Shown in pieces: positions 95 through 63,641 of a stretch of DNA of 64,000 bases. The DNA is from a virus (lineage: Duplodnaviria; Caudoviricetes), in IMG/VR virus record IMGVR_UViG_3300032373_000001, one strand, 5' to 3'. A program made the position numbers and the translations under genes. The stretch's first letter is position 1, and every line of letters begins with the position of its first letter. Below the pieces are notes generated by a model. The model was not told the DNA's origin, ran no database searches, and saw only the letters and a program-made list of their open reading frames with translations.

Positions 95-487
95 TCAACC
101 CACCAACTGGGCCAAATTGGAGAGCATGTCCACATCTTCGACGATGAAGCTCAAGTCGATCGACCCAGGCCGGACCTCCTTAGCTCCCACCCTCTCCCCT
201 TCGAGGGAAGTGATGCGGAACTCGGGCTCCACTCCGAGCCGCTCCCCGTACTCCCTCAAGACAGCGTTCTGCAGCCCCTGGAGGATGACGTTCTTGTACC
301 GCTTCAGGACCCACTCACTGAGGCCCTCGTGATGCAGGTCCGGAACCGGATCACGGACCTGCAAGAATCCGCGGACCCAGAACAAGGTCCCCCTACGGAA
401 AGGCGCGATCTCAGTGAGGGAGAAACGTGCTCCGGCAGTCCTCACCCCTTCTTGCCCCAAGATACCAGCCAGCCTCACATTGCCCAT
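95..487 (-). CDS. Hypothetical protein with leader family 1 (candidate head cargo)
   Basis: GGAGG RBS supports the start at 487 (MGNVRLAGILGQEGVRTAG) rather than 502. Confidence 0.75.
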   Translation of the reverse strand: MGNVRLAGILGQEGVRTAGARFSLTEIAPFRRGTLFWVRGFLQVRDPVPDLHHEGLSEWVLKRYKNVILQGLQNAVLREYGERLGVEPEFRITSLEGERVGAKEVRPGSIDLSFIVEDVDMLSNLAQLVG

Positions 488-520
488 AGGAACCTCCAAC
501 ACCCTTGAGGGAGAGGCTGC

Positions 521-11820: not shown

Positions 11821-12300
11821 TCAGAGGCGGTTGTCGACAGAGTACCCGTTGAGGGCGGCTTCGTACCCATCCGCCTGTTCCGCCAGCAGGCTAACCCCAA
11901 CTTGGCGTTCTGTCGGGGGATTCGTCTCCCCCGACAGCTTGCGGAGCGCACCTACGAACTCCGGATAGTCGAATCTCCGCAAGAACTCTTCGGGGCTCAA
12001 CGGCTTCGCAGGCTCGTATGCCCCGGAGTATCCCTGGTGCTCCGAAGCGCACAAGAGGAGGGTGCCCAGCTGCCGCAGCGAAAGGCGGCTCGCAGCAAAG
12101 TCCAGCTCCGCTCCCATAGCCCCAAAAGAGTCCATGGAAAGGCTGAGGCGAGGACCCATCCCCGCATCGTACACCCGGAAGCTCACTCCCCCGTTACCGA
12201 CGTGGAAGTACCCCTCCTGAACCGTGCGACCCTGACCCGTGTTGCGTGCGACCTTGGCTACGCCCTCTTGCTCCAGGCTGTAGGCGAGCTTCTTTCTCAC
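11821..12300 (-). CDS. Hypothetical protein with leader family 1 (candidate head cargo)
   Basis: Starts MRKKLAYSLEQEGVAKVA; GTG start overlaps the upstream TGA. Confidence 0.7.
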   Translation of the reverse strand: MRKKLAYSLEQEGVAKVARNTGQGRTVQEGYFHVGNGGVSFRVYDAGMGPRLSLSMDSFGAMGAELDFAASRLSLRQLGTLLLCASEHQGYSGAYEPAKPLSPEEFLRRFDYPEFVGALRKLSGETNPPTERQVGVSLLAEQADGYEAALNGYSVDNRL

Positions 12301-27923: not shown

Positions 27924-29033
27924 ATGTCAGACCACACGATGTATGGAGCACAGCTCGACGCAGGCAAGACGTCGGAGACGCTGAGCCACCTGTTCCGCAA
28001 CAACCACGAGGCCCTGGAGAAGGGCCGGAAGGCGACCCCGGTGTGCATTTGGGGGACTCACGGCATCGGCAAGACCATGCTCGTCGAGGAGTACGCCAAG
28101 GAGCAGGGCTGGCAGTTTGCCTACGTCGCCCCCGCACAGTTCGAAGAGATGGGGGACTTGAACGGCCTGCCCGTCCTCGAAGAGAAAGAGGACGGCACCA
28201 AGACGACCAACTTCGCACCCCCGGACTGGGTCCCCACCGCCGAGGGGCCGGGCATCCTGCTGCTCGACGACGTGAACCGCGCCGACGACCGCATCCTCCG
28301 CGGCCTGATGCAGCTGCTCCAGAACGGGGAGCTGTTCAGCTGGGCGCTGCCCGACAAGTGGCAGATCGTCTGCACCGCCAACCCCGAAGGTGGCGACTAC
28401 TCCGTCACGCCGATGGACGACGCGATGCTGACCCGGATGCTGCACATCTCGATGGTGTTCGACGAGAAGCCCTGGGCCAAGTGGGCCAGCCGGAACGACG
28501 TCGACGAGCGGGGAATCGCCTTCGTGCTCACCTACCCGGAGTCGGTCACGGGACGGCGCACCACGCCCCGCTCCCTCACGCAGTTCTTCCAGCAGATCAG
28601 CAGCATCGAGAACCTGAAGGAGGAGGCCGACCTGGTGTACACGCTGGGGATGTCTTCGCTCGACGAGGTGACGGTCAGCACCTTCATGGCCTTCGTCAAC
28701 GACAACCTCCAGCAGCTCATCAACCCCGAGGACATCCTCAACGCCCCCGACTTCAGCGTCGTCGCGCGCCGCATCGAGGACCTGTCGGAGGGAGGTAAGC
28801 GGATGGACCACCTCTCGACCATCTGCACCCGGCTGCACTTGCACCTGACCCACCCCAGCTTCAAGCCCAAGGAGGCCCACCGGGAGAACCTGGTGTCGTT
28901 CCTGATGCACGAGTCCCTGCCGACCGACCTCCGCGTCAGCCTGCACCGGGACCTGGTGCGGGACGCCAGCGATGAGGTGCGGGTGATGATGCGGGACCGC
29001 CGCCTCGCAAAGCTGATGCTCGCGGGCATGTAG
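27924..29033 (+). CDS. MoxR-like AAA+ ATPase
   Basis: Walker A WGTHGIGKT, Walker B LLLDDVNRA, sensor CTANP, TTPRS. Confidence 0.88.
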   Translation: MSDHTMYGAQLDAGKTSETLSHLFRNNHEALEKGRKATPVCIWGTHGIGKTMLVEEYAKEQGWQFAYVAPAQFEEMGDLNGLPVLEEKEDGTKTTNFAPPDWVPTAEGPGILLLDDVNRADDRILRGLMQLLQNGELFSWALPDKWQIVCTANPEGGDYSVTPMDDAMLTRMLHISMVFDEKPWAKWASRNDVDERGIAFVLTYPESVTGRRTTPRSLTQFFQQISSIENLKEEADLVYTLGMSSLDEVTVSTFMAFVNDNLQQLINPEDILNAPDFSVVARRIEDLSEGGKRMDHLSTICTRLHLHLTHPSFKPKEAHRENLVSFLMHESLPTDLRVSLHRDLVRDASDEVRVMMRDRRLAKLMLAGM

Positions 29034-29042
29034 GAGAACAAA

Positions 29043-30314
29043 GTGCAAGACAACCGACGACACGCCTGGGAAGAACTGGCGCGCTGCATCAACCAGCTGA
29101 TCCTCAAGGAGCCGTTCTACGGCCACCTGCTGGGCAGCGTCATCCGGGACATCAACCCAGCCACGCCGACGATGGCGGTAGGGGCACGCGGAGCACAGAT
29201 CGTACTGCAAGTCAACCCTGACTTCCTGATGCAGCTCAAGTTCTCCCGCGACCCCGGCAAGTGCGAACGGACGGCTGTCATCAAGCATGAAGTGCTGCAC
29301 CTCATGTTCAAGCACGTCTTCCGGATGGGCAACCGGAACCACCGCCTGTTCAACTTGGCGGCAGACATCGTCGTCAACCAGTTCGTGAAGCCGTGGCGTC
29401 TGCCCGAGGGTGGGGTGACCCTGGACACCTTCCCGGACCTGAACCTCAAGCCCGACAAGAGCCTCGACTACTACTACAACAAGCTCGACGAGCTGCGCCA
29501 GAACCCCCAGTCCGCGCCCCAGAGCGCGGAGGCCCTGAGGCAGATGGGCGGCATGGGGGGCGAAGGGGAGGAGGACGCGCAAGGCGACCCCAGCGGGGAA
29601 GGCTGCGGGGGCCAAGGAGGGAAGGGTCGCGGGGACCACCGCCTGTGGGGCGAAGCCGAGGGCCTGGAACAGCAGGTCGCCGACTCGATCCTCGACCGCC
29701 TCATCGTCCAGGCCAAGGACCGCGCCGGACAGTCCGGTTGGGGGCCGCTGCCGAACCGGATCAAGGAGCTGATCCAGGCTGCCATCGAGCGGCGCAAACC
29801 CAAGCTCGACTGGCGCCGGGTGATACGGCTGTTCGCAGCGTCCAGCCGCAAGACCCGCGTGGTCAACACCATCCGGCGGCGCAGCAAGCGCTACGGCACC
29901 TACCCCGGCATCCGGGTTCAGCGCTTCCAGAAGATGGCCGTCGCCATCGACACCTCGGGGTCGGTCAACGACCGAGAGCTGGCAGACTTCTTCGGCGAAA
30001 TCCACGGCATCTGGAAGCAGGGGGCTGAGATCACCATCATCGAGTGCGATGCGGCAGTCCAACGTACCTACCAGTACACGGGGAAGCTGCCCGATGCCGT
30101 CGCGGGCCGGGGAGGCACTGCCTTCAACCCGGTGTTCGAGTACCTCAACGACAACCGCATGGTCCGCTACGACGGCTGCATCTACCTCACCGATGGCGGG
30201 GCTCCTGCCCCGACCATCAAGCCGCCGTGCCCTCTGCTGTGGGTCGTGACGTCAGACGGACATGCAGGGGAACACCTTCAGTTCGGTCGGGTCCTCCAGC
30301 TGCCTGCGGGTTGA
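29043..30314 (+). CDS. Metallopeptidase-vWA protein (DUF2201-like)
   Basis: HEVLH (HExxH), N.AADIVVN, C-terminal vWA AIDTSGSV ... GRGGTAFNPVF ... YLTDG; canonical partner of the adjacent AAA ATPase. Confidence 0.88.
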   Translation: MQDNRRHAWEELARCINQLILKEPFYGHLLGSVIRDINPATPTMAVGARGAQIVLQVNPDFLMQLKFSRDPGKCERTAVIKHEVLHLMFKHVFRMGNRNHRLFNLAADIVVNQFVKPWRLPEGGVTLDTFPDLNLKPDKSLDYYYNKLDELRQNPQSAPQSAEALRQMGGMGGEGEEDAQGDPSGEGCGGQGGKGRGDHRLWGEAEGLEQQVADSILDRLIVQAKDRAGQSGWGPLPNRIKELIQAAIERRKPKLDWRRVIRLFAASSRKTRVVNTIRRRSKRYGTYPGIRVQRFQKMAVAIDTSGSVNDRELADFFGEIHGIWKQGAEITIIECDAAVQRTYQYTGKLPDAVAGRGGTAFNPVFEYLNDNRMVRYDGCIYLTDGGAPAPTIKPPCPLLWVVTSDGHAGEHLQFGRVLQLPAG

Positions 30315-30410: not shown

Positions 30411-30893
30411 TCAGTAGCCGTGCTCCGACAGCAAGCGGCGAAGCTCTTCCAGGACCTCGGCAAAGACCCTGCGCCACTGAGGGTCCGAAAAGCTCACGTC
30501 ACCGAACGAGCGGCCTGAGTAAGACTCCCAAAAAAGGGCGTTCTGGCGGGTGAGCCTCCCATACTTCCCGAAGGCGATATAGCCCGAGGCTTGATCCTCC
30601 AGCCCCACGCGACCCGGTTGGTCGAGGTAGAGGAACTTCCCGAAAGGGAGACTCAAGACGACACCGACGTAGCCGGAATTGAACGCCTTCACAGCCCCCT
30701 GGCCGGAGATCCCTGCGCCCTCGAGAACCTTCCGGAAGGCACTTGCAGCATCGAGGGTGCGGGGAGGGACCTGGAAAACTGCGGACCTGCTCGACAGACC
30801 GGCGAGGATTGCCCGGCGAGACTCATCGCCCTCGGGCAAGGAGCGGGCGAGCTTGATCAACGCGACCCGGTCTGCCCCTGAAAACTTTTGCAT
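30411..30893 (-). CDS. Hypothetical protein with leader family 2 (candidate head cargo)
   Basis: Starts MQKFSGADRVALIKLARSLPEGDESRRAILAGLSSRSA; AGGAGGAG RBS. Confidence 0.75.
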   Translation of the reverse strand: MQKFSGADRVALIKLARSLPEGDESRRAILAGLSSRSAVFQVPPRTLDAASAFRKVLEGAGISGQGAVKAFNSGYVGVVLSLPFGKFLYLDQPGRVGLEDQASGYIAFGKYGRLTRQNALFWESYSGRSFGDVSFSDPQWRRVFAEVLEELRRLLSEHGY

Positions 30894-30942
30894 TGCCTGG
30901 AACTCCTCCTACCCCGGAAGGGTGAGACCCAACCTATTGAGG

Positions 30943-31557
30943 TCAGCCCGCCTGAGTCTCCGGTCTCCTCTCCCACCCCCGTTCGGGGGTGTACTTGTAG
31001 GGTCCGACCTCCTTGTAGCCAGGACCCTGCACCAAGAAGACGCGCCGACCGAAGCTCTCGTAACCCCCGAGAGGCATCAGCAAGCTGACTGCCGAAGAAG
31101 AGGTAGAATACTGCGCCTGGACCTTCTTCAGCTTTTCTTGGTGTCGCCGCGCTCGTTCTCTGGCGGCAGCATCCGTGCGAGCTTTCTTCTGGGGGTTCTT
31201 AGGCAGACCTACCAGAGGGTCTTCCCGGAGGGGCTCCAAAAGGTCCACAAAGACGATGACACCCCGCCGGAAGCAGACCCGTGCAGACTGGCTCACCCCA
31301 CAGACCGGGCAGAACCATTCACCCCGCAGCTCGAAGTAGGGGATGGGAGGCAAGTCGGGAACCCGTTGCCCCACCAAGGTCTGCCGCCTTGAGGACTTGT
31401 AACCCTTCAGGTGCAGCCAGTAGGATATGGAAAGGAGCCCTCCCCAAGGAGGACTGGTCCATCCATCCTCCCCCCAGCTTTCAGGGACCCGGAGCCCGTC
31501 CATCTTACAGGACATGCACACATCTGCTGGGGTGTATACGAAGTCACCGACCGCCAT
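30943..31557 (-). CDS. Hypothetical protein with two CxxC motifs
   Basis: CMSC and WFCPVC motifs. Confidence 0.6.
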   Translation of the reverse strand: MAVGDFVYTPADVCMSCKMDGLRVPESWGEDGWTSPPWGGLLSISYWLHLKGYKSSRRQTLVGQRVPDLPPIPYFELRGEWFCPVCGVSQSARVCFRRGVIVFVDLLEPLREDPLVGLPKNPQKKARTDAAARERARRHQEKLKKVQAQYSTSSSAVSLLMPLGGYESFGRRVFLVQGPGYKEVGPYKYTPERGWERRPETQAG

Positions 31558-31641: not shown

Positions 31642-32514
31642 TCAGCGGGTGATCGTCAGGCGGGTGAGGCCCTTCGGGTTGTAGGCACCAATACCGAGGT
31701 TCTCGAAGCACGAGAAGCCGATGGTGCGTGCCCTCGGGTCGTCGGCGCTGAGGACAGTCAGCTCGGTGCGGACCGGGATCCGGCCGAACATCTCAGGCTC
31801 GCAGCAGACGTAGACGGTGCCGACCGGAACCAGGCGGCTGACGATGATCTGAGCGCCCCAGAGGGTGCCCATCAGACCAGTCTTCAGCAGGTCGCGCTGG
31901 GACTCGATGTCGAGGATGTCACGGCCGAACTTGCGGAGGTCCGCGTAGTCGCGAGCGTTCATGAACACGCGGGCGACGCGGAGGTCGTGGCGCTCGATGA
32001 GGGCGAAGGCGTCGGCGAGGACAGCACCGCTGATCGGAGCGACGACCGGGATGTCGGGGTTCTCACCACCGGCGATCGAGTCGAAGCCTGAGGTCGCGAT
32101 CGCGTCGAGAACGGCGAACACACGCTCATCCTCAGCAGCCTGGATCTGAGCCTGGGCCAGGTCCTGGGCGCGCTCGATGAGATCGAAACGGCGCTCCTTG
32201 ATCTGGGTCAGGGGGATCTCAGGGTTCGATGCGATCTCGAACAGCGGGAAGATGACACGGCGGGGCTTGGTGATGGCGACGATGTTCTCGCCTTCCTCGC
32301 CGACCACGTAGGCCGTGACATCGGGGTCCTTGTCGTAGATCGGCAGAGCGCCGTCCGGCAGCTGCTCGACCAGGAAGGTCTTGCGGCCGACGGCCATGTA
32401 GTCGCGGCGCAGGCGCAGCGGCTGGGTCATGGAGGCGGCGAGCTTCGCGCGACCGGCTTGGGTGTTGAGGTGCGCCTTGATGAGGCGGGCCTTGACGTCG
32501 TTGGAAACGGGCAT
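31642..32514 (-). CDS. Major capsid protein (HK97 fold)
   Basis: 290 aa, very biased codons, follows protease-scaffold-decoration. IASNPEI ... AQAQIQAAEDERVF ... GTLWGAQIIVS pattern; from memory it resembles the mycobacteriophage Bxz1-type MCP (unverified). Confidence 0.9.
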   Translation of the reverse strand: MPVSNDVKARLIKAHLNTQAGRAKLAASMTQPLRLRRDYMAVGRKTFLVEQLPDGALPIYDKDPDVTAYVVGEEGENIVAITKPRRVIFPLFEIASNPEIPLTQIKERRFDLIERAQDLAQAQIQAAEDERVFAVLDAIATSGFDSIAGGENPDIPVVAPISGAVLADAFALIERHDLRVARVFMNARDYADLRKFGRDILDIESQRDLLKTGLMGTLWGAQIIVSRLVPVGTVYVCCEPEMFGRIPVRTELTVLSADDPRARTIGFSCFENLGIGAYNPKGLTRLTITR

Positions 32515-33386: not shown

Positions 33387-34583
33387 TCACTGGAAGTGGC
33401 TGGTCACGTCCGGAGCCGACTGCCAGAGCTGGCTGAGGTCCATGTCACCCTCGGCCGAAGCCTCCTTGGTGACAGTGCCCAGCGTGGACGGGCCGGTCGA
33501 AGCCTTCTTGGGCTGCGGCTTGAGGTCGAGCTCGGAGGCTTCCTTGGCCTGCTCGTCGGCGAGACGGGAGACCTCATCGCCCTGGAGCTGGGCCAGGAGC
33601 GAGCGCTCCTCCTCATCGAGTGCCATGATGTTCATGGGGTCCATGTCCATCTCGACCTCCTCTTCCTCGTAGAAGGAAGAGGGCTCGTTCTGGTCCATGC
33701 CGACATCTTCCACGGCCTCGGGCTCCATCATGCCCTCTTCGCGCATCATCTCCATGTACATGGCTTCGTAGTCGTCGCCTCCCATGGGCTCACCGCAGGC
33801 TGCCTGAGAGGCCATGCCCTCTTCGTCGCAGGCCTTCTTCTTGGCCTCCTCGTCGACCTCGACCTCGACCTCCTCCTCATCGCTGTCGTCATCGCTGTCG
33901 TCATCGCTGTCGTCATCGCTGTCGTCGTCATCATCCTCATCGCCCTCATCGTCATCCTCGGCGAGGCGCATGAGGATGCGCTCCAGGCGGGCGACGCGGG
34001 ACTCGGTGTCGTCTTCGGCAGCGAAGCGGGTCAGGACGCGCTCCAGCGTCGCGATGCGGCCTTCCAGGGAAGCCTGCTTCTCTGACTCCTCCACCCCCTC
34101 AGCCTTGTGCTCGACCTCCTCCTGGATGGTCTCAGCGGCCTCAGCCTCAGCCTTCTCTTCCTTCTCGGTGCCCGCGGCCTTGTCCTCGGCCTGCTTGTTG
34201 AGGTTCTCGAGGCTGGTGAAGATGTGGGACTCGGGCAGGTCCATGAACAGGCTGGCTTGCCTCTCGACCTTCATCACGTCGGCGTCGGTGGAGGGCTCGC
34301 CCAACATCGCCGTGGCGAGGCGCAGGCAGAGGTTGGCCTTCTCGATGGCAGCCATCTTGGAAGCCGGGTGGTCGTGGCCCTCATTCGGGACAGCGGGTGC
34401 AGGTCCGTTCGGGTACGGGCCGGGGTGCGGGTCCTCAGCCCAGGAGCTGGGGTCGCCGTTCTCGTACTTGTCAGCCTCGGGGTCGGGCTGAGAGTGAGCG
34501 GGCGATGCCGGTCCTTCGTTGGGCACGGCGGGAGCCGCCGAGCTCTTCTTGTTGTTCCAGGTCAGTCGTTGACGAGCCATCAC
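33387..34583 (-). CDS. Capsid scaffolding protein
   Basis: Very acidic, coiled-coil and low complexity; lies between protease and capsid genes. Confidence 0.8.
   Translation of the reverse strand: MMARQRLTWNNKKSSAAPAVPNEGPASPAHSQPDPEADKYENGDPSSWAEDPHPGPYPNGPAPAVPNEGHDHPASKMAAIEKANLCLRLATAMLGEPSTDADVMKVERQASLFMDLPESHIFTSLENLNKQAEDKAAGTEKEEKAEAEAAETIQEEVEHKAEGVEESEKQASLEGRIATLERVLTRFAAEDDTESRVARLERILMRLAEDDDEGDEDDDDDSDDDSDDDSDDDSDEEEVEVEVDEEAKKKACDEEGMASQAACGEPMGGDDYEAMYMEMMREEGMMEPEAVEDVGMDQNEPSSFYEEEEVEMDMDPMNIMALDEEERSLLAQLQGDEVSRLADEQAKEASELDLKPQPKKASTGPSTLGTVTKEASAEGDMDLSQLWQSAPDVTSHFQ
33877..33924. repeat. Coding tandem repeat (TCATCGCTGTCG)x4 encoding (DDSD)4
   Basis: Four exact 12-bp copies read from the sequence. 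Confidence 0.9.
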
Positions 34584-34592
34584 GAACTCCTC

Positions 34593-36047
34593 TTAGAGGG
34601 TTTGCGGGTTGTTGTTGCGCTCCCACTTGGAGAGCAAGGAGCCGACCCGGACAACAACCCGGAGTTCGGCAGAGGAAAGCTCCCTCCCCGCCGCGCGCAG
34701 GATGGCGCGCTTGTAGTCTTGCGGGGAAGTGTAGCGAACCGGGGAACCGACCTTCAGCGCCACCCGGTAGGGTGCGGGGTCGGTCGGGATGCCGTAGGCT
34801 TGGTTCAGGGTGGCGACCCCTTCCACCAAAGCCACTTGGGAAGAGGCGGTGCGGGTCAGCAGGTCCATGCTGACATGGTACGCCTTGCGAGCAAGTCGGG
34901 CACCAGCCTCTCGCTGAATCGAATCGTTGGGCTGGAATGTGACCTCCGAGTCTGCCTCGGACGCCTCATCTTCCCTCAAGTCCTCATCGATGCGGTCGTG
35001 GACCTTGTCCTTGACCTTCTCGTAGACCTTCTCGGTGAGGTCTTCGAAAGGCTTCTTCGGCTCTTCGCCCTTCGGCGCATCGCCCCCTTCCTCGTCGTCG
35101 TCCTCGAAGTCGAACGCCTTGCAGAACTTGGGGAGGGTGAGGTTGGCAGCCTTGCTCATGGCGGTGTCGGACCAGCCGGTGGGGGCCTGGGCCAGAACAT
35201 CCCGCAGAGCCTTCTTGACCTGAGCGGGAGGGAGGTCACCTGCATCGATCAGGTTGCGCATGACCGCCCCAGGGAAAGCCGGGACCTTGACCCAGCTGGC
35301 CTCGATGAAGTTCACGCCGCCCGGAGCGTCAGGGTTGTCCTTGTAGTCGATGTGGCCGCAGAGCTCTGCAACGACGCGCTTCTGTTGGCGCTCGTCCAAG
35401 AAGCTATTGAGCTTGCTGATCTTGATGTGGTCGCAGAGGTCCGTCTCATCGACCGCGACATGGCCGCACTGAGAGCAGATGGTGAAGTCTGTGGTACAGC
35501 CCATGCTGAGGGTGCCCATGACCCCAGCCCTGATGTCGCGGACCAGGGTCTCGTGCTTCCGGTCGGTGGCGACCAGAATGTCGATGTAGACCGAATCCCC
35601 GATGTCGCGGGCGACCGCATCCAGGATGCGACCCTTACTCTGGGCCTCGATCTGGACGTGCTCTTGGAAGTTGTGGCCCGCGATGAAGGTGGGGTAGCTC
35701 GCCGTCAGGACCGGACGGCTCCAGCAGTCGCCGTTGTTGTTGACGAACTGAGCCGACTTGTCGGTGATGTAGAAGTCGCCCCAACGACGGTCGATGGTCC
35801 GGGACCCGACCCGGACCCGACCCAGCTTGGCGTTGGGGGCCTGCTCAGTATCCACCGAAGCCACGATGGTGCAGTGAGTGAACAGGTACTTGTCGGGGTC
35901 CAGGCTGCCGCCCAAAATCTCCCTCGCCTGATCTGTCAAGTTGCGGTTGCTCGCACCCGAGGTTGCAGCGGTGCGCGTTCGGCTCCACTGGCGACGACTC
36001 ACGTAGGGGTGAACCACCATGGCATTGGCTTTCTTCGAGTGAGCCAT
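34593..36047 (-). CDS. Prohead maturation protease (herpesvirus/HK97-type serine protease fold) with Zn-ribbon insert
   Basis: NNNGD.W, EH..IE..SKGRILD, LSMGC..DFTICSQC...CDH, FIEASWV..PAFPGA; position upstream of scaffold and MCP. Confidence 0.82.
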   Translation of the reverse strand: MAHSKKANAMVVHPYVSRRQWSRTRTAATSGASNRNLTDQAREILGGSLDPDKYLFTHCTIVASVDTEQAPNAKLGRVRVGSRTIDRRWGDFYITDKSAQFVNNNGDCWSRPVLTASYPTFIAGHNFQEHVQIEAQSKGRILDAVARDIGDSVYIDILVATDRKHETLVRDIRAGVMGTLSMGCTTDFTICSQCGHVAVDETDLCDHIKISKLNSFLDERQQKRVVAELCGHIDYKDNPDAPGGVNFIEASWVKVPAFPGAVMRNLIDAGDLPPAQVKKALRDVLAQAPTGWSDTAMSKAANLTLPKFCKAFDFEDDDEEGGDAPKGEEPKKPFEDLTEKVYEKVKDKVHDRIDEDLREDEASEADSEVTFQPNDSIQREAGARLARKAYHVSMDLLTRTASSQVALVEGVATLNQAYGIPTDPAPYRVALKVGSPVRYTSPQDYKRAILRAAGRELSSAELRVVVRVGSLLSKWERNNNPQTL

Positions 36048-40000: not shown

Positions 40001-41507
40001 CCCCCGAAAGCCCGGTCGCCTCCTTGGCGAGGCGGAGTTGGCAGCGGTTGTTCACGTCTACGATACGAGGGTTCTTGAGCTTGGTCGCATCGAACCACGC
40101 GGTGCTCTCGATCATCCAGCCCTCGACGAACGGGGCACCGCGCGCCGTGACGTGAACTCCGTCGTAGAAACCGGCGACCTCCGCCCAGTCGATGCGGATA
40201 TCGGAACCCTCTTCTTCGTAGTCATCCTGCTCAAAGGTCACTGGATCGAGGTAGGCGAACGGGTACACCAGCCCGAAGAGATAGTCCCTCTGAGAGTCGA
40301 TCACCAAGAGGTTCGCTGAAGGGGCCGGGTCCAGCAAGACCGCCTTCTCTCCGACCCACTCCGGCATCTCACCCTTACACCAGTCCAACCACGGAGAGAT
40401 GTTGCCCTTCAAGGTGCTGGTCCAGAACGCCTCGCGGGGCTTGAACCGGGCTACCTTCGGACTGAACATCTTCCGGAGGGTCTGGTACTGAAACTTCTGT
40501 CCGGGGCGGAGCAGGAAGACCTGAGTCCCGAGAGCCTTGGCTTGACGCTCCGAGGCGAACCGCTTCAGGAGCTCCCGGACCACCTGCTGACGGTATGCGG
40601 GCTCGGTGAGACCAGACTCCTTGACCTGCTGAGCCCAGACCCCAGCATCCTGCTCCAGCTTCGCCTGGGCATACTCCGAAAACCTGGCATAGCGCGTAGT
40701 CATAGAGGCTTCCTTGTCGAGCTTGTCCAACACCGTACCGTCCTGAAGGAAGCGGTCTACCATCCCAGGGACCAGGTACTGGCTTTTGAGCGTGCTGGCC
40801 TCATGGCCCACAGCTGCTGCCGCAATCTCCAGGGCATCGGCGAGCTCTTGCTTCAGGATAGGGTCCCGCTCTTTCCGGGGCGTGGGAAGCTCAGGACCAT
40901 CGCTGCGGATCTTCTTCAGGGCTGCACGCACCTCTTCGTTTGCGTGAAGACCCCGGAGGTCCTTGGCGGTGACCCCAAACTCCTTGAGGTAGTCGTTGAC
41001 CTCGGAGGCAGTGATGGAGCAATCCGCACCCTCGCAGAGCACCTTGTCGTCTGAGCCTTTGCCGTCGAGCGCCTTCTTCAGCGCCCCTACCAGGGCACCG
41101 TCTTCGACGGTTTTGTCGTGCTTGACGCCACTCTTCCCCACGTACTTGAAGGTGGCCTTGTTGCCCTCCACCGTGACGTGCTTCTTCAACCAGCCAGTGA
41201 CCCCGAAGTGCCCATCCTTGGCCGACTCCGGATTGCCCACCCTCTCGTAGGTGTTGTCGATGAGGGCCACAGCCAAGGCCGTAAGGCGCTTCTGAGGGTC
41301 AGAAGCGGAGAGGTCCTTCTTGTACTTCGACCGGAGCTTGCCGATGCTCTTGCGGAGCTTTTCGACGCGCTTGGCCTTGGCCTTGTTCCGATTGGACTGC
41401 TGGATGGGGCCGTACTCGTACACGGTCGTCTTCCCCGAGCCGTCTACCTTGTCGACCTCTTTCTTGTTCTTGTACTTGGCCAGGACCCGGCTCGGATCAA
41501 GTTTCAC
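37089..41507 (-). CDS. Polyvalent protein: topoisomerase IB + unknown (ART-like?) domain + inorganic pyrophosphatase-like domain + acidic helical region
   Basis: Topo IB pentad (ERVGN, GKSG, KDLR, GH-x8-Y); FQGVKIDVENKKGS.RSG.D..G...YGEI.GT.G.DGDKLDVYVG...DEDKVMLGF. GTG start at 41507 overlaps the upstream TGA, with GGAG RBS. Confidence 0.8.
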   Translation of the reverse strand: MKLDPSRVLAKYKNKKEVDKVDGSGKTTVYEYGPIQQSNRNKAKAKRVEKLRKSIGKLRSKYKKDLSASDPQKRLTALAVALIDNTYERVGNPESAKDGHFGVTGWLKKHVTVEGNKATFKYVGKSGVKHDKTVEDGALVGALKKALDGKGSDDKVLCEGADCSITASEVNDYLKEFGVTAKDLRGLHANEEVRAALKKIRSDGPELPTPRKERDPILKQELADALEIAAAAVGHEASTLKSQYLVPGMVDRFLQDGTVLDKLDKEASMTTRYARFSEYAQAKLEQDAGVWAQQVKESGLTEPAYRQQVVRELLKRFASERQAKALGTQVFLLRPGQKFQYQTLRKMFSPKVARFKPREAFWTSTLKGNISPWLDWCKGEMPEWVGEKAVLLDPAPSANLLVIDSQRDYLFGLVYPFAYLDPVTFEQDDYEEEGSDIRIDWAEVAGFYDGVHVTARGAPFVEGWMIESTAWFDATKLKNPRIVDVNNRCQLRLAKEATGLSGVYDNLQLMDAGQERPRYADPAWRYFPLYKESYNLMARIAAFSHGSRTKFRDDPGAQAAEALLGRAYAKMSSAFIDGIEPSMKQSRKNPLVEPKWDYFLGKMKEADEALYEASELWPSWELQSLSFKFLKFMRHVESVRKGSARPRAWRFATLKLADVFPLKIRSPFHQQVEDLSTVTKALAAEAAVEGAHRASRKLYDLHRQFREVVEGYIKPRSGKRPALPGLGFIRLFRRIDDLAEDVRDLWDNEEAQLLSYRVGDLTRQIAGYTVKFASTNQKLVESPHNFHPVKVLPPKAKRKEYPFEGFIDFQGVKIDVENKKGSTRSGTDPDGEPWSVKMICHYGEIRGTEGTDGDKLDVYVGDNHDSSLVVVVHQHNPWDGKYDEDKVMLGFNSVEEAIGAYKNQYSKPGYFKEGEISTMPIGQFWRWVNEKRNKGKKVKASLSGQLSAVWFKQSTLSEGEKDDREAEKLVQQSPKKKPPRMDLRNRKVDTDGDQDPDEKQDKKDRSQNYKDAGLHETRIRSRQCEQRASGVPTPDPFDRSYPRMPSAARVARMAAKVPDWAEGKEYTSEETGNKVEFGSLPESQQEKLRQQNEAAPEKEAPSADKPKEDESSEVSLDRYFTERKKYTTRALRGVPEDSRDKTREVLDSFGADQYEEFKEQFSTASSSLVREAIPDSSRLLEALKDMTDQVQKGSVKDPTTLAENLALMAYYENVLDNPAVDLEDPLPPKGEASSEESKKAAAERALSAVSSYKKLDADTRQRHWERVEEKIEGLPEDSAQRDHLEAIQRGIGMASAIQDGDKATGVASSMARLVQAADKAGSLDKLAGLSMYGGSGLADQRMMRSIYEDLTDQDLEDLLPEDHPGASLVQFLTDPDRSGYLSDEDRNEIRQHLIDLMQAETAFLDPAVTKEVGREAVVADHKRAAKKARAKAAPKRKMTELRSKRAFLDWVQEYLKNLITATGKQASDLHRN

Positions 41508-44500
41508 AGCTGACTCCAACGGAGGGACAACTCTCGCATTGCCTGAATGCTGGCGAGACGCCCGGCATCTTGAAGGGGGGTATTCGGGGGCAAGTACCCA
41601 GGACTCGAACCGAGCGGGATGTTCTCTGGGGCACCCATGCCCCAGATCTGGACGCTGTTGAAGTCCCAGGAGCCCCGGGGAGCCTCCAACCTCACTTCCT
41701 CACCTACAGGCACGTAGGCGATCGTGACGTGGGGATTCCAGCGGGGGAACGAATCCTTGACCTCGAACCCCGCCTCTTCGAGCCGTGCGCGGAGCCCATC
41801 TCTGGCCCGATTGAGGTCGCGACTGAACCGGACCCTGCTGAAGATGACCTTTTGCTCAGGGCTCAAGAAGCGGTCCAGCCCTCTCAGGGCAGCCCGGACC
41901 GGGCCGCGGACCTCACTGAACGCCTGGGTGCAGACAACCTTGAAATCTTCCTCTCGCCCCTCGGGGACCTGACCCACGTACAGGAGGGTGATGTGGGCCG
42001 GGGATGGGTCCTCACTCTTGGTCGGGTACTGAGCCGCCAACCCCTCCGGGAGGGGAATGAACAGGCCCACAGAAGTGCCCGTGGGAGGGACCACCGCAGC
42101 AGCCTGGGCGGAAGCCGTTCGGCTCTGAGGGGCGGAGGCTCGCCGGGACATAAAAGTGTGACCCCTTTCCCGGCCCGTCTCGACGAACCCGCGACGCTTC
42201 AGCATGCGAATCGCGTGAGGGTTGACTGCATCCAGGCAGAAATCCAAATCCTCGAAGGCTTCAGAGATTGCATCGTACTCGTCGATGGCATAGTCCATGA
42301 GCTTGGCCCCGAGGCCCTGCTTTTGCCTGTCGGGGCGGACTGCGATGTCGAAGGAGTAGCAGTCGTTGCTAACCTCGTCGAACAGTACCGCGACCAGCTC
42401 CCCGCCGACCATGAGCCCTGCCTTGAAGTCCTTGCCGCTGAAGATGTTGATGCCCGCTTGCTTGGCGATCTCCCAAGGGTCCGGGCCATCCCACGGAACC
42501 TCGAAGACCCACTCGACCCGATTGCTGAGCTTCAGGGCCTTTTCCTCGCCGCCTGCTGCCAAGATAAGGACACCGTCCTCTTCTTTGAGCACATCACCCT
42601 CGAACCGGGCTCCCTGAGCCGTGGTCCAAGCGACCTTGGTCTGCTGGGTCCACTTCTCCCCATCGGTATCTCGTCCAGCCTCCAGCGCGCCGAGATAGAA
42701 CCAGTGCTCTTCGATGCTGGCACGATCTGCGCCGCGAGGCAGGGCAGCCGTAGACGCCCCGTAGTCGGGTTCGGTGACCAGCTCCCAGGTGTTGGAGTAG
42801 AGGACCGGGACGCCCGCAGCGTCTTCTTTCGACTGGCCGATCGTCGGGTGGATGCTCGCAGTACGACTCATGCCCGCCCCCTTGGGCTGAGGAGAACCAT
42901 TCGCATACAACCGGGAACCCCGAACATAGCGCACCAGGTCCTGTTCTCCCAGCTGATAGGGGGTGTTGCTCAAGAGACTCATGGCCTGGGCCTTGGTCAT
43001 CAGCTTCGGACCCTTCAGGACGACGTCCTGATTCCAGGTGACCTCTTCCGAATAGGAGGGCTTGGGCATGGTGTCGGTCCGGAACCGGATTGCAACGACC
43101 GGACCCTCATCCTTGTCGATGTGGGTAGTCTGGGTCCCCGGGACGTAGTCTCCCCACACCAACGAGATGGCATACACGGCATAGCCGCCGAACTTCTTGA
43201 TTCCGGGCGGGTCAAGCAAGAGCTTCTTGGAGCGGAGAATAGAGGCAGCACGCTTGGCGGTGGTGAAGTGGACGAACTCATCCGACGCCAAGTTCATCTC
43301 ATAGACGCGGCCTTCCATGAAGGTGGTCTCGCTCGTGGGCGTCGGACCCGCAGAGCCCACCTTAACCTTCATGGTATCTCCAGTCCACTCCCCACCCTTT
43401 TCCTTGTACCACTTGGCAGCCCACCCTTGATGGAATCGGACAGGCATCTTGGGGTGCTTATCTTGGGCCGACCTCAGCGCCTCGGCCCAGAGGGCTGCAT
43501 TCTCGGGCTTGCCGAAGTCCCCCTCAAAGAACTCCCTTGAACCCTTGAACCAAGCCGCCCGAAGCTGGCGAGACGCAGCGCTGGAGAACAGGCCCGCCAC
43601 AGCCTTGTAGGCTTCCCCGATCGCCTTCCTGTACTTGCCCTGAGCAGAGGCTCCGGCCCGCTTCAGGTCATAGAAGAACGCAAGCGGATAGGTCCGGGTG
43701 TCGTGCCGGCGCTGGCCCACCATGATGCGGAAAGCTGCTGCCCGTTCCTCTATCGGGAGGGCTTCCAACCCCTCCCGCATACGCTCAATAGCGTCCGGCA
43801 ACTTGGTGTAGAACTCCCGGTCGTCCAGCGAATGCTGCGATCGGTTTTGGCCCTGCTGGCGGATGTCCGGGGTGCGGATCTTCTTGCCGGGGAGGCCCGC
43901 CTGGATCTTGTCGGAGGCGAATCCCGCCAGAGTGCTCAGGAGGTTCTGGGCATAGTGGCGCATCTCGTGCTGAAGGGCCTGCTGGATCCACTTGGCGTTG
44001 ACCTTCGGGCTAACCTCGACCTCTATGACGGCGGTGCGCGGGTCGAACTCGGCCGAGCGACGACCTCTGGTGTCGCTGAGTATCAGATTCACCCCAGGCT
44101 TCTTGGCACTCCGAAGGATGTCACGCTTCATATTCTCGATGTAGGCGAGCATGTAGTCCGGGATCGGACCTTCCGGGGGCTGGAGCTTCTTCAGGAGGTC
44201 AGCGTTTTCCTTCTCGATCAGCTCCTCAAGGCGGTCCCCGTACTTCCAACCCTTGAGGTCTGCTTCGAACCTCTTCTGAACCGGCCCGCTCAACACCACG
44301 GCTTCTGGGTGGAGCTTGCTGAGCCGTTCCCACTCCTCCCATGCAGAGTTGTCGGAGCCCATGCCTTGGGCCACGCCCTTGTCCATACGGGTTTTAGCCC
44401 AAGAAGCGACGGCCCAGCGATACATCTCGTCCAACATCGCCGGAGGAGCTTCGAGCAGACCTGCCTGCTTCGATGCAACGAAACGGTCAGGGATACCCAC

Positions 44501-52006: not shown

Positions 52007-52588
52007 TCAGTCGTAGATCGGGCCGCGATCGCGACGACGCTTCGGGGCACGACCGCGACGCTTGGCTCCATGCTTGTCGAGGTACTCGATGATGTCGTCG
52101 GCGGTGAGCCCCCGCTTCTCCCACTCGCGCCTGCTGAGACCCGCACCCATGTGGGGGTGCGTCAGGTCAATCTTGGCAGGCTGGCCCTTGCTCATGCGGA
52201 CTTGGTAAACCAGCCGCCCTTCCTCAGACTTGATGTCATCGGGCAACAGGCGGTCCCAGGTCAGCGCCCAACCCAAGAGCTTGGCCACCTTCTTCTCCGT
52301 GGCCGAGAGCTTGTTGAACACCGCATCCTGCTGCGCCTTGTAGATGTTGTAGGCTTCCCGCTCAACCTGGCGGAACAGGGTGCCTGTATCATACTGGCGA
52401 ATCCAGTATCCGTACCAGTCCGCCGCATCCGCGAAAGTGCGGGCGAACCCCATGGAACCCCTGCTCACGAGGTACTCGGCGAGACCCTTCGCATCCCCCG
52501 CCTGAAGGAACGCTTCGACCTTCGGGTCTCGCTCCTCAGACTGCTTGGAGAGGCCCTCTTCCCTCAAAATATCAGCCAGCTTCTTCAT
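52007..52588 (-). CDS. Hypothetical protein with leader family 1 (candidate head cargo)
   Basis: Starts MKKLADILREEGLSKQS at 52588 with GAGGGG RBS. Confidence 0.75.
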   Translation of the reverse strand: MKKLADILREEGLSKQSEERDPKVEAFLQAGDAKGLAEYLVSRGSMGFARTFADAADWYGYWIRQYDTGTLFRQVEREAYNIYKAQQDAVFNKLSATEKKVAKLLGWALTWDRLLPDDIKSEEGRLVYQVRMSKGQPAKIDLTHPHMGAGLSRREWEKRGLTADDIIEYLDKHGAKRRGRAPKRRRDRGPIYD

Positions 52589-52596
52589 GGTTCCCC

Positions 52597-54151: not shown

Positions 54152-54490
54152 TCAGCCCTTCCCGTGCTCGTCCGAGGCCCCACGGACCGGCCACCGACCG
54201 CTTGCGCGGGACTCCGTCTCAGCGCTGAGGATCTTGTCCTCATTGATCTCCTCCAGAGCCTCCAGCTCCTCGACGAACCCCTTGATCAGGGACTGAGCTT
54301 CGGGGCTCGCGGGGTCCGTGTGGGGGAAGGCACCTTCGAGGGACTTGGTCACTGCCCGAACGACCCCGCGAGAGTAGAGCGCGACCTTGTCCAAGCTGGT
54401 CAGGATCGCCCTGCGGGTCTCGTCACCCTTCGGGAGAGAGCGAGCCAGCCGCACCAGAGCCTGTCGCTCCTGCTTCGAAATCCTTTTCAT
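54152..54490 (-). CDS. Hypothetical protein with leader family 2 (candidate head cargo)
   Basis: Starts MKRISKQERQALVRLARSLPKGDETRRAILTSLDKVA; AGGAGG RBS. Confidence 0.75.
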   Translation of the reverse strand: MKRISKQERQALVRLARSLPKGDETRRAILTSLDKVALYSRGVVRAVTKSLEGAFPHTDPASPEAQSLIKGFVEELEALEEINEDKILSAETESRASGRWPVRGASDEHGKG

Positions 54491-56333
54491 CGGAGGTCCT
54501 CCTATCCAGAGTTGCCGATAAGGAAAGGATTGCTCTGGCGAGGGCCTCTATCGAGACAGTGTCGCCCGAAGCGGTCTTGAGGCTGGCGAAACGCCCTTGG
54601 CTCTCCTTGGGTTTGGCGTAGGTCAACCCCAAACCCTTCGCGAGCTGGGACACGACGTCGGAGTTCTCGACCAGCTGCCGTCCCGTGTCGCTATAGATGC
54701 CTCGCATCATCTCGTTGTATGTCGGATCGTTGACGGTCAGCCGGTCCCGCTCGACCTTCTCCCGCACAGCCACCGGATCGAGGTTCAGGAGCTCCAGGAT
54801 GGTGTCGATGTCCAGCGAGCCCTTCTGGTACAGGTTGTAGAGCGCGTCGAAGGTGTCCCGGTTGTCCCGCAGGGCAAGGCGGGTGAAGCTCAGGGAGGGG
54901 ACCAAGACAATCTTATCCCCGTCCTCGTCTTCCTCCACAAAGCCCATACGAGCACACATAGGACGCAAGAGGATTTCTTCCACCAGTTTCTGGAGCTGCT
55001 CTCGCAAGAGCATGTAGCGGGTGTTGATGGCCTCCAGGTTCACCCGGTCCCCGGAATAAGAGCCCTCTCCTGTCAGGAGGCTCTCCGTGATGCCCAGGCC
55101 CGCATACAACTGACGGTTGGTCAGCTCATACTCGCCGTCCAGGTTCAAGAGGCGCTGGTCTGCCCCCATTTCTTCCCAGCGGACCTCGAAGTTGGAGACG
55201 ATGGAATAATCCGGGTCCATCAGGGCCATATCGACCTGCTCCCGGAGGTCCTCCACGTCACCCAGGCTAAGATCTTCCCCGTACACAATGCGGATAGGGG
55301 TCATGTGCCGCGAGGCGATGGAGGTCTGAGCCTGACGGAGCTTGTCCCGATAGACCAGGGCTCGCATGCAGCACTGGAGGATCGAAGTCCCACGGGCCTC
55401 GTAGTCCGACTTCTTGTTGTAGAGGCAGTACACGAAGCTGCCAGCATACGGGTCCGTACCCAAGACCACGTTCCCACCCTTCCGGACCGCGTCGATCAGG
55501 TGGGGAGGCATGTCATCCACGACCTCCTTTGCCACCGGGTCTCCCGCTGCCGCCTGCTCGATGACCTTCTTGGTCTCGGAGTCCGGGAGCATCTCCACGA
55601 TCTTCTTGTCGGTGAAGTTAAACGTGCGGACCCTAATGTTCTCGGGGGGGAGGCAGACCAACTTGGTCCAGCCCTTGTAGTTCTTCTTCAGCCACTTGGC
55701 AGCGCGCTTGTCGGCGTCCTCGTACTTGATCCTCTTCTCTACAGCCTCACCATCTTCCGTCAAAACCCGCTGCGTGTAGTGAGTGATATCTTCCGGCATC
55801 TCCGGGTTCTTGTCCTCGCACCAGAGATACACCTCGCCGATGAGGTTGCGCTCACGGGTGATCGCCAAGAGCCGGTCCGTCAGGTCGATGCGCCGGACCC
55901 ATTTCTCACAGAAGCGCATCGCCGCCTCCGCCATCTTCCGATTCTTGGCGCGAGGGATTGCCAACCGTACCTTGCTGATCGGCAGGATGGAATGTAGGGA
56001 AATCGCCTGGCTGACGTAGGGTTCGTTCTTATCGAAGAAGCGGTAGTAGGCCCACTGCTCATGGAGGCTCTGGGGCAGCTCCAAGAAGTCCGTGGAGAGC
56101 TCCGGGGAGTAGAAGTTGCCTCCGGCTCCCATCACCGACCCGCCGTTGCCGAAGCCGCCTCCACCGTAGGATGCGGTCCGAGACTTCATCTGGCTGGAAA
56201 CCACCCGCCGAGGCGGGCCAGCCTTGGCCTTCTTCTTGCCGTCTCCGTTGGAGACCTTGTTGACCACCTGAGCATCATCTTCTTGCTGCTTGCCCAGCCG
56301 CTGGCCGAACCCCTTACGACGACCCATCTGCAA
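54423..56333 (-). CDS. Portal protein
   Basis: 636 aa two genes downstream of terL; FYSPE...YYRFFD..EPYV.QAI.LH, RGTSIL, helical C-terminal half. Confidence 0.8.
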   Translation of the reverse strand: MQMGRRKGFGQRLGKQQEDDAQVVNKVSNGDGKKKAKAGPPRRVVSSQMKSRTASYGGGGFGNGGSVMGAGGNFYSPELSTDFLELPQSLHEQWAYYRFFDKNEPYVSQAISLHSILPISKVRLAIPRAKNRKMAEAAMRFCEKWVRRIDLTDRLLAITRERNLIGEVYLWCEDKNPEMPEDITHYTQRVLTEDGEAVEKRIKYEDADKRAAKWLKKNYKGWTKLVCLPPENIRVRTFNFTDKKIVEMLPDSETKKVIEQAAAGDPVAKEVVDDMPPHLIDAVRKGGNVVLGTDPYAGSFVYCLYNKKSDYEARGTSILQCCMRALVYRDKLRQAQTSIASRHMTPIRIVYGEDLSLGDVEDLREQVDMALMDPDYSIVSNFEVRWEEMGADQRLLNLDGEYELTNRQLYAGLGITESLLTGEGSYSGDRVNLEAINTRYMLLREQLQKLVEEILLRPMCARMGFVEEDEDGDKIVLVPSLSFTRLALRDNRDTFDALYNLYQKGSLDIDTILELLNLDPVAVREKVERDRLTVNDPTYNEMMRGIYSDTGRQLVENSDVVSQLAKGLGLTYAKPKESQGRFASLKTASGDTVSIEALARAILSLSATLDRRTSDEKDFEAGATGSGAAGSLSPEG

Positions 56334-56667
56334 TCTCCTCCGCCGCCTGCTGCTCAGCCGCCCTCAAGAGGGCTTCTTCTCGCTCCTGTCGGACCCGTTC
56401 TCGGAGCTGTTGCGCCAGCTCATCCTCGGTCATCTCGTCGGTTTCTCGAGGGCCATTGCTGTAGGGGCTCACCATGCTGGGAACGTCCTGGATCATCTCC
56501 AGGAGCCCCCGGAGGTGCCGCAGGGTCCTTCGCTTCCGCTGAGGAGGTACGCCTACGGCTTCTGAGGCAGAGCGGAGTGCAGCACGGACCTCGGACTCCG
56601 CTCGACGAAGGCGGATCAGGACCTCACGGTCTTCCGCGCTACTCTGGCGGATCCGGAAACGAGTCAT
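56314..56667 (-). CDS. Hypothetical protein between terL and portal
   Basis: 117 aa, ATGA overlap with terL stop. Confidence 0.7.
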   Translation of the reverse strand: MTRFRIRQSSAEDREVLIRLRRAESEVRAALRSASEAVGVPPQRKRRTLRHLRGLLEMIQDVPSMVSPYSNGPRETDEMTEDELAQQLRERVRQEREEALLRAAEQQAAEEIADGSS

Positions 56668-58580
56668 CGACGGCGGCCTCGGGGAATGGTGCGACTACTG
56701 TGGGACCCTACCCCAGTGCGGCGCGCGGACCTTCGGGAATTCCCGAAGGGGGTCTTGCCTGCTGAAGGCAGGCCCCGGCGACCGGACGCCCCCAGCGTTG
56801 CATGCTGGTAGGTCTTGTTCTGGGTAGCGCAGAACACCATGCGAACCAAAGCGTCACTGTAGTCGTCGTGTTTCCCTTCCATCTGGGGGGCCTCGACGTT
56901 GACGATGTACTTGGACTTGTACTCCGCCTGAAGCTCCAACAGCTCTTGGATGTAGTCACACCACTCCTCGTCGTCCGCCAACGGCCAGTTGTAGAGCCGC
57001 ATCTTATGGTCCATCATGAGGTGCATGAAATTGGTGTAGACCTGGGAGTTGAAGCTGGGGTTGAACAGCTTCGACTTGATGTTCTTCAGGCCACGGCGGT
57101 TCAGCGCCTGCTCGAAAGGGATGCCAGCCCACTGGTCGAACATCCCCTCCACGATGTAGAAGCGCTTGCTCAGGTCGTAGACCCAGTCCGCGACGTGATC
57201 GAACTCCAACCGCTCGTAGTCTGCGTAGTCGCCCTCGCCAGCGCGGATGCGCTCGATGTAGTCCAAGACTACGTTGCCATCCGGGTCGTTGTGGCCAACG
57301 GCGACTGCAGAATAGTCGCCGACGAGGGCGATGTCGACGCCCATGAAGTGGGGGGCGCGAGGCTGTGCCCGGAGCTTGGGGCGCATGTCGGGGACCACGC
57401 AATCGTGCAGGTCCTTGGGGGTCTGGATCCAGCCACGAGTCTGATCGCTGAAGATCGCACCGAACTCAGTGTCGAAGACGTTGGGGTCCTTTAGGTAAGA
57501 ACCGACGAACGTCTCAGCAGGAACTGTGGGGTTGACCTCCCACGTAGGGGCCTGGATGCAGAGGAGGTTGTCTGCGGCTGCGTTGTCGCCAAAACCCAAC
57601 CGGAACTGCTTATAGAAAAGGCCCTGCTTGCCCAGCGGCGAGGAGATCATGATGATCCGACCCTCGTTCTCTCCGACAGGCTTGGTCTTGTCGTTGGGGT
57701 CCTTCTTGCTGAAGGTACGGGTAGAAGGCTCGACCGCCTGATAGACCTCGTCGGCCGACGCCTGCCCCTTGTCTCCGAAGTGAGCGACCTCATCCAGGGC
57801 AACCAGCAGGTTGGCTCCACCACGAAGGCCCTTAGCCACACAAGACCGGAAGGTCACGTTGATGCTGAACCGGGCCTTGGGGTTGTCCGCGTAGGACCCG
57901 TACTGCTCGATGTCATAGGGGGTCTGGAAGGTGGCATAGCTCTGCGTGGCGTTCGCAGCATAGGGTCGGAAGAAGTCACACTTGGTGAAGTGCCCCGAGG
58001 CCTCCCTGTAGAGCAAGGACGCCTGGTCCTTGTCGGTAGCGACCGAGATCAGCTGGATGACGTTCGATTGAGAAGAGCCGTAGTATGCCTGGGGGTTGCC
58101 CTTCAGGAGGAGCTTGTACGCCTCATAGGCGACGATGCAAGACGTGATCAGCGTCTTCCCAGAACGGCGACCAACACTGAGTACCATCTCGCGGCGCTGC
58201 CTGCCAGGGACGACCGCATCGATGTTGCAGCGGCCCTCACTGTGGAGGTACTTGATGTAGCTGGCCTCGGTGTGGTACTGAGGGTTCTGCCGCCGGAAGT
58301 CTGTGATGACCACCCGATAGACGTAGAAACCATCCGTGTCAACGAGGTCTTCGTCGTAGGCTGGGTGGTTAGTCGGGATCGGCACATCCAGCGGGAACCC
58401 GAGGGGGTTGTCGTCCAGCCCCATACCATAGTGGGCCTTGAGGATGATACGCTGAACCGGGAACAGCTTGAGGCCCAGCCCCCACTCACTCTCCACGAAC
58501 GTAATGATGTCAACCGCCGCATCGTCCGTAGAGTTAGACGAGCGGCGACCGACGCCAGCTACCAGGTTCCCCAGGCTCAT
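56664..58580 (-). CDS. terL: Terminase large subunit
   Basis: Walker A GRRSGKT, Walker B LVALDEVAH, coupling motif ISSP, nuclease FMGVDIA and HDDYSDA. Confidence 0.93.
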   Translation of the reverse strand: MSLGNLVAGVGRRSSNSTDDAAVDIITFVESEWGLGLKLFPVQRIILKAHYGMGLDDNPLGFPLDVPIPTNHPAYDEDLVDTDGFYVYRVVITDFRRQNPQYHTEASYIKYLHSEGRCNIDAVVPGRQRREMVLSVGRRSGKTLITSCIVAYEAYKLLLKGNPQAYYGSSQSNVIQLISVATDKDQASLLYREASGHFTKCDFFRPYAANATQSYATFQTPYDIEQYGSYADNPKARFSINVTFRSCVAKGLRGGANLLVALDEVAHFGDKGQASADEVYQAVEPSTRTFSKKDPNDKTKPVGENEGRIIMISSPLGKQGLFYKQFRLGFGDNAAADNLLCIQAPTWEVNPTVPAETFVGSYLKDPNVFDTEFGAIFSDQTRGWIQTPKDLHDCVVPDMRPKLRAQPRAPHFMGVDIALVGDYSAVAVGHNDPDGNVVLDYIERIRAGEGDYADYERLEFDHVADWVYDLSKRFYIVEGMFDQWAGIPFEQALNRRGLKNIKSKLFNPSFNSQVYTNFMHLMMDHKMRLYNWPLADDEEWCDYIQELLELQAEYKSKYIVNVEAPQMEGKHDDYSDALVRMVFCATQNKTYQHATLGASGRRGLPSAGKTPFGNSRRSARRTGVGSHSSRTIPRGRRR

Positions 58581-63640: not shown

Positions 63641-63641
63641 C

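Follow-up and report, generated by a model that had tools for sequence, protein, structure and literature searches.

A conserved hairpin tag on unrelated proteins of one clade of uncultured huge phages, a candidate signal for loading cargo into the procapsid

The capsid-targeting sequence (CTS) of phage T4 is a peptide of about 10 residues that stands strictly at the N-terminus and is cut by the gp21 protease; the ADP-ribosyltransferase Alt is also among the proteins that T4 packages. In phage P22, the C-terminal helix-loop-helix of the scaffold protein, about 30-40 residues long and with essential basic residues, docks on the HK97-fold coat protein, and this coat-binding domain can be transplanted to load foreign cargo into procapsids. 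Encapsulin cargo-loading peptides, which fill the HK97-fold shells of cellular nanocompartments, are short, mostly C-terminal and unstructured. The packaged proteins of T4, counter-defence proteins among them, are described as diverse defence proteins with the CTS as their only common feature (PMC3012670).

The stretch of DNA analysed here (the window, 64,000 nucleotides) is part of a huge-phage metagenomic contig of 410,989 bp (ENA ERZ27251221), and two of its genes encode proteins that begin with a similar peptide of 33-37 residues, here called the tag. Like the CTS of T4 (carried there by IPI-III and Alt), the tag is a conserved terminal peptide on otherwise diverse, fast-evolving and unrelated proteins of one large myovirus, and its genes are near head genes or co-regulated with them. 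It differs from the CTS in its length, in its predicted folding into a hairpin and in being found also at internal, C-terminal and tandem positions, and the two have no likeness in sequence. The predicted hairpin with its conserved basic residues recalls instead the coat-binding helix-turn-helix of P22. However, the P22 element is C-terminal and belongs to the scaffold, whereas the tag is carried by many non-scaffold proteins and is absent, by profile search, from the scaffold candidate of the window; neither sequence nor structure gives a significant match between them. The encapsulin peptides resemble what is proposed here for the tag, in that short terminal peptides direct cargo of several kinds into an HK97-fold shell, although they are shorter, mostly C-terminal and unstructured, and without sequence likeness to it. 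By analogy, the position independence of the tag would set it apart from the T4 CTS and bring it nearer to the P22 scaffold hairpin or the encapsulin peptides. The closest known systems are the T4 CTS by function and the P22 scaffold hairpin by shape, and the tag is a member of neither. It is previously undescribed: neither Pfam nor PHROGs has a match, it is missing from deposited phage genomes, and a full-text literature search with tag strings found no paper.

Two tagged genes in a head-gene block

The terminase, portal, prohead protease, scaffold candidate and capsid genes of the window all lie on the (-) strand, and both tagged genes belong to this head-gene block (Table 1). The 160-aa protein is encoded two genes behind the capsid protein and in the same orientation, and the gene of the 112-aa protein overlaps the 3' end of the portal gene with its first 68 nt. 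The capsid protein is 85% identical to that of LR745208.1 (a 485-kb uncultured phage), 50% to that of Tunturiibacter phage Tunturi_5 and 39% to that of Bacillus phage G. The Tunturi_5 relative of the prohead protease is annotated as 'head maturation protease', and the scaffold candidate has no family match in Pfam or PHROGs.

Table 1. Positions of the tagged genes, the leaders and the head genes in the window
Feature	Position	Strand	Basis
Gene of the 160-aa protein P0001	30411..30893	(-)	
Tag copy 1, residues 1-37 of the 160-aa protein (MQKFSGADRVALIKLARSLPEGDESRRAILAGLSSRS)	30783..30893	(-)	profile 65 bits, E 6e-21
Body of the 160-aa protein, no Pfam/PHROG family	30411..30782	(-)	homologous bodies in P0005, P0006
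Shine-Dalgarno AGGAGGA, 10 nt before the ATG of the 160-aa gene	30904..30910	(-)	read from sequence
Gene of the 112-aa protein P0002	54152..54490	(-)	
Tag copy 2, residues 1-37 of the 112-aa protein (MKRISKQERQALVRLARSLPKGDETRRAILTSLDKVA)	54380..54490	(-)	profile 66 bits, E 3e-21
Body of the 112-aa protein, acidic, no known family; P0018 body homologous	54152..54379	(-)	sequence comparison
Shine-Dalgarno AGGAGGA, 6 nt before the ATG of the 112-aa gene, within the portal coding region	54497..54503	(-)	read from sequence
117-aa gene between terminase and portal; residues 8-20 (QSSAEDREVLIRL) like the first helix of the tag only	56314..56667	(-)	8.4 bits
Genes with family 1 leaders at their N-termini	786-1175, 11821-12300, 52007-52600, 95-502	(-)	N-terminal sequence
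Major capsid protein, 290 aa, HK97 fold, phage G gp27 type	31642..32514	(-)	phrog_2522, E 9e-51; PDB 6WKK gp27, E 5e-64
Portal protein	54423..56333	(-)	phrog_16240, E 3e-24
Terminase large subunit	56664..58580	(-)	phrog_2, E 3e-23
Prohead protease with C-terminal extension	34593..36047	(-)	40% identity to Tunturi_5 gp331; phrog_18299
Scaffold candidate, very acidic, coiled-coil-like, between protease and capsid genes	33387..34583	(-)	composition and position

An earlier, sequence-only reading of the window had proposed that the two proteins share about 30 residues at the N-terminus and then diverge completely. This is borne out by BLASTP: between the 160-aa and 112-aa products the single significant alignment covers residues 1-33 (E 7e-12), where 20/33 residues are identical and 27/33 score as positives. 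Homology of the bodies, which would have made the pair simple paralogues, was not detectable, since a profile-profile comparison of the two body families returns a probability of 0.2%. At the nucleotide level the two tags are identical at 61/99 positions and use different codons at 15 of the 20 identical residues, which argues that the copies are old and that it is the peptide, and no element of DNA or RNA, on which selection acts. A profile search of the window found no full copies beyond these two; a third (P0016) lies about 136 bases past its left edge, on the same contig.

The public gene call for the 112-aa protein (P0004, 100 aa) begins at a GTG (V13), which removes one third of the tag (window 54454-54490). 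Because a Shine-Dalgarno sequence precedes the ATG and residues 1-12 are conserved, the ATG is taken as the start and P0004 as a truncation of the tag. Judging from this gene, database proteins of this family may often be N-terminally truncated.

A weaker echo of the tag had also been pointed out in the 117-aa gene product. It is in the correct N-terminal register, aligning with profile positions 3-15, but it is borderline and not significant alone, and BLASTP does not find the match; this stretch may be a degenerate tag copy or a chance resemblance. The sequence 'KRAILRAAG' at the C-terminus of the protease was considered as a hidden tag and discarded, being not significant by profile search.

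Several further genes of the window have matches of their own. For the 204-aa gene between the capsid and 160-aa genes (30943-31557, (-)), the only family match is a weak one to a rubredoxin-like zinc ribbon (E 0.005). In the virion block, a 1797-aa protein (41504-46897, (-)) has weak precomputed acetyltransferase matches together with a 2',5' RNA ligase-like match; it may be a virion protein of large size that combines several enzymes. By precomputed Pfam matches on the identical contig, a histidine kinase of the PAS/HATPase_c type (662 aa) is encoded a few genes before the terminase and on its strand (61233-63685, (-)), along with a response-regulator receiver protein, and the two would form a two-component system of the phage itself. 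Next to the 160-aa gene, on the opposite strand and between the blocks of head and tail genes, are found a MoxR-type AAA ATPase (PF07728) and a DUF2201 metallopeptidase-vWA protein (27924-30314, (+)). This last pair was considered as a partner or processor of the tag and rejected for now: no homologue is present in the five tag-rich contigs described below, all of them fragments, and phage G has a homologue yet is without the tag.

Shape, portability and range of the tag

The full consensus of the tag is M-x-K-[IL]-[ST]-[AS]-S-D-R-x-A-L-I-R-L-A-S-S-L-P-x-G-[DS]-E-x-R-[RK]-A-I-L-A-G-L, with DRxALIRLASSLPxG[DS]ExR[RK]AILAGL as its short form. More than 10 positions are conserved in more than 85% of the copies; R9, R14, R26 and R27 are near invariant, the acidic D8, D/S23 and E24 are conserved, and the conservation covers every face of both helices. 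These helices are amphipathic and are separated by an L-P-x-G-[DS]-E loop. The helix-turn-helix hairpin that had been supposed from the sequence agrees with the AlphaFold2 model of P0001, which predicts helices at residues 6-18 and 24-36 (block pLDDT 85-97) followed by a linker and a body of low confidence. In P0009, a protein with two tags, both copies are modelled by AlphaFold2 as the same confident hairpin, with a pTM of 0.35 for the whole. Structure searches of the PDB with the models of the 160-aa protein and P0009 gave no match at E<=0.001, and a search of the ESM Atlas gave nothing telling.

The [KR]-x-A site after which the two proteins had been said to part is real, although loose. 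Over 174 copies, the second residue after the tag is K in 47%, the third is A, T or V in 63% and the fourth is A, S or G in 56%, and 44% conform to x[KRQ]x[ASGT]. What follows the tag can be summarised as a loose x-K-[ATV]-[AS], from which both tags of the window deviate somewhat, and residues like K-K-A-S also stand before internal copies. It is possible, on thin evidence, that the prohead protease removes the tag at this putative basic-x-small motif. As a definition of the cut site, G[LVIM]x[KR]x[AS] was rejected because its enrichment in the proteins of the window is too weak (10 matches against 6.5 expected, and 4 against 1.0 within the first 60 residues). The N-terminal AGRAKLAAS of the capsid protein, invariant within the clade, was rejected as a copy of the cut motif and is no evidence of cleavage, as its lysine is absent from phage G gp27 and the deposited chain of that protein is nearly full length (280/282 residues).

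The wider occurrence of the tag was addressed with an exhaustive search of 1.84 billion representative proteins, using an HMM built from three tag copies. It returned 1072 representative clusters at E<=1e-3, 121 of them at E<=1e-10, and positions and bodies were inspected for the best 150 of the 1072 matches. With the tag masked, BLAST sorts these 150 proteins into 94 groups, of which 78 have a single member, in agreement with the proposal of a portable label on unrelated bodies; at the level of sequence, the tag is a portable module of the peptide. Its description as an N-terminal leader holds only in part. A copy stands at the very N-terminus in 140 of the best 150, but in 47 of them the tag is repeated, internal, C-terminal or in tandem, with 2-3 copies that are often at both ends or in tandem. 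Such copies count against a simple clip-off leader and fit a docking domain better, and they suggest that the tag works wherever it is placed in a protein. One match, P0079, was discarded as a leucine-rich-repeat false positive.

The tag is carried by hundreds of unrelated proteins, most of them small. Among the tagged bodies are found an ADP-ribosyltransferase with two C-terminal tags (P0035; PF03496, E 7e-22), pentapeptide-repeat proteins and one protein with a segment like VP2, a DNA-binding protein of fuselloviruses. In P0007 the tag is joined to a third body, and the gene lies directly before baseplate genes in another contig. Two cassettes recur behind the tag: '..EALxKYLKEHPxADPxxHxV', placed just behind it in the largest body group (about 30/150 tagged proteins), and 'GCEKLPxGPMRDNCEKK', found in three-tag proteins. 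Metagenomic examples of tagged cassettes include P0010, P0014, P0021, P0024, P0025 and others.

A second leader, family 1 (M-x-K-L-A-x-I-L-x-x-E-G-L-x-[KR]-x-[SA]), is present on unrelated small proteins of the window, and its endings resemble the motif that follows the tag. The sequence-only reading had supposed that the two families are perhaps aimed at different partners. A single case speaks against this: P0005 has the body of P0001 behind 'MNKNILRRLLAQEGLTRTS', which resembles the family 1 leaders of 786-1175, 52007-52600 and 11821-12300. From this leader swap, it seems that one family can stand in for the other on a given cargo. In P0006, the same body follows a different module again.

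In IMG/VR, 30 loci carry the tag, and five large contigs hold 24, 6, 4, 7 and 9 tag matches; JGI 3300045053 and 3300041075 contain related contigs. Every one of these five encodes at least one of the related capsid protein and terminase, the capsid protein being 87-90% identical to that of the window in four of the five and the terminase 64-71% in four of the five. The capsid-protein family counts 2084 relatives, the top 120 of which are all 86-92% identical. The tag was not found in 50,697 deposited phage records, T4-like phages included, and one pattern scan of 185,579 prokaryote genomes did not find it. Profile searches of LR745208.1 and of the related cultured phages Tunturi_5 and G gave no tag. 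On these searches, the tag is restricted to one clade of uncultured huge phages with a capsid protein of the phage G gp27 type. LR745208.1 has no tag in its post-portal gene, and its protease and portal are 41% and 56% identical to those of the window; by these identities it is a distant relative, further away than the capsid protein implies. Its portal gene (406169-407851) contains one in-frame TAG, which hints at stop-codon recoding in this phage.

Procapsid loading and its alternatives

The links between the tag and the head extend to a sister genome (G001), whose head module is syntenic with that of the window, with 87% identity for the capsid protein and 37-71% for the other head proteins. 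In this genome a tagged gene follows directly after the portal gene, its body being longer than, and unrelated to, that of the window. A promoter-like motif, GGTA-N6-[CT]TAT, has 27 sites in the 97 kb of G001 that were sampled, where shuffled sequence yields about 3, and nearly all stand 25-110 nt upstream of a start codon. It precedes head-module genes as well as 8-9 tagged genes; as 5 of the 7 sampled regions of G001 were picked for holding tags, the share of tagged genes among these sites is biased, while the head-module sites are unbiased. The window has five such sites (60226, 50755, 50078, 23710 and 2756), all on the (-) strand and before genes of the virion module. Neither tagged gene of the window is preceded by one, both being inside head operons. 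A stricter form, CGGTA-N7-CTAT, is not convincing in the window (8 matches against 3.4 expected).

The explanation proposed is that the tag serves for docking wherever it stands in a protein, and that its purpose is most likely to load cargo into the procapsid; this is given about even odds (roughly 0.5). The hairpin would bind one conserved partner built by the phage. A single phage partner is suggested by the conservation on all faces, by the purifying selection, by the restriction to one clade and by the presence on unrelated proteins. The capsid protein is a natural candidate for this partner because it is the most conserved protein of the clade. Docking through the tag would gather varied cargo at the same place, most likely the interior of the assembling procapsid, and the prohead protease could then remove the tag at the loose motif behind it. 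The cargo would be packaged and would enter the host along with the DNA, as happens with the T4 capsid-targeting sequence. Likely cargoes would be the ADP-ribosyltransferase and the pentapeptide-repeat protein, of a kind able to mimic DNA. It counts against loading that LR745208.1, albeit a distant relative, has no tag despite its related capsid protein, and that most copies in G001 belong to tandem arrays of small genes a long way from the head module.

The repeated copies would also be expected if the tag were a self-associating sticker, with hairpins binding each other, for instance as four-helix bundles. Proteins with several tags would then be hubs and those with a single tag clients, and the body so formed may be an assembly or replication factory and not necessarily a capsid. 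Besides the 47 proteins of the best 150 described above, this agrees with the conservation of both helices on all faces and with one three-copy ORF of about 770-900 aa in each of three tag-rich contigs (G002:189647-191890, G004:20723-23026 and G005:36268-38865). These ORFs, one per contig, may be a conserved multivalent hub protein. However, the two hairpins of P0009 show no confident mutual packing in its low-pTM model, which is weak evidence, and the placement in the head-gene block is left unexplained. Self-association is considered unlikely.

If the tag instead bound a single conserved partner in the host (for example a chaperone, a protease adaptor, the RNA polymerase or the ribosome), every tagged effector would be delivered to the same host machine. 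The tag is conserved above most phage proteins of the clade, as if its partner evolved slowly, and cargo such as the ADP-ribosyltransferase acts on host targets. Yet the pattern scan did not find the tag in cellular genomes, a single host dock for dozens of different effectors would be unusual, and both the co-placement with head genes and the promoter motif they have in common fit virion loading better. A host partner is given a rather low probability.

The four near-invariant arginines and the helix-loop-helix shape raise the question of a nucleic-acid-binding hairpin, in which R9, R14, R26 and R27 would contact DNA or RNA and tether proteins to the phage genome; the VP2-like cargo points in the same direction. 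Against this, the loop is longer than in classical helix-turn-helix motifs and a third helix is absent, no DNA-binding family is matched in Pfam or the PDB, and the conserved acidic residues offset the charge. Nucleic-acid binding is regarded as improbable.

A tag that docks small variable domains on the outside of the capsid or tail, as decoration or adhesins, would account for the position of the P0007 gene, and the extremely conserved capsid protein could provide a constant docking surface. Still, ADP-ribosyltransferase and pentapeptide-repeat cargo have no obvious role outside the particle, and the bodies contain no Ig-like or lectin-like domains by Pfam. Display on the exterior is likewise regarded as improbable. 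That the common N-termini have no function and are leftovers of duplication and exon-shuffling-like recombination is hardly credible: the peptide stays 55-80% identical while synonymous sites are saturated, and it recurs on 94 groups of unrelated bodies, which calls for selection on the peptide as such.

Procapsid loading is the preferred reading among these. Its widest form describes a global clade of huge phages in which a structured, position-independent and sometimes multivalent tag would load dozens of swappable effectors per genome for co-injection, with the family 1 leader as an interchangeable alternative. This larger picture is put forward tentatively, as somewhat less probable than docking and loading as such.

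Significance for huge phages

If loading is the correct explanation, the tag would amount to a system for addressing cargo that differs from the T4 CTS, and to an encapsidation tag ready for use. The repertoire of injected effectors could then be listed from sequence for a whole uncultured clade, with more than 1000 protein clusters and up to 24 matches per contig, and the tag would indicate where to seek counter-defence proteins. Being compact and foldable, it could also be used to pack foreign proteins into large capsids. Huge phages carry hundreds of genes without known function. Whatever its destination, a module of 33 residues so conserved and so abundant, with no counterpart in Pfam or in deposited phage genomes, marks an undescribed interaction hub of these phages.
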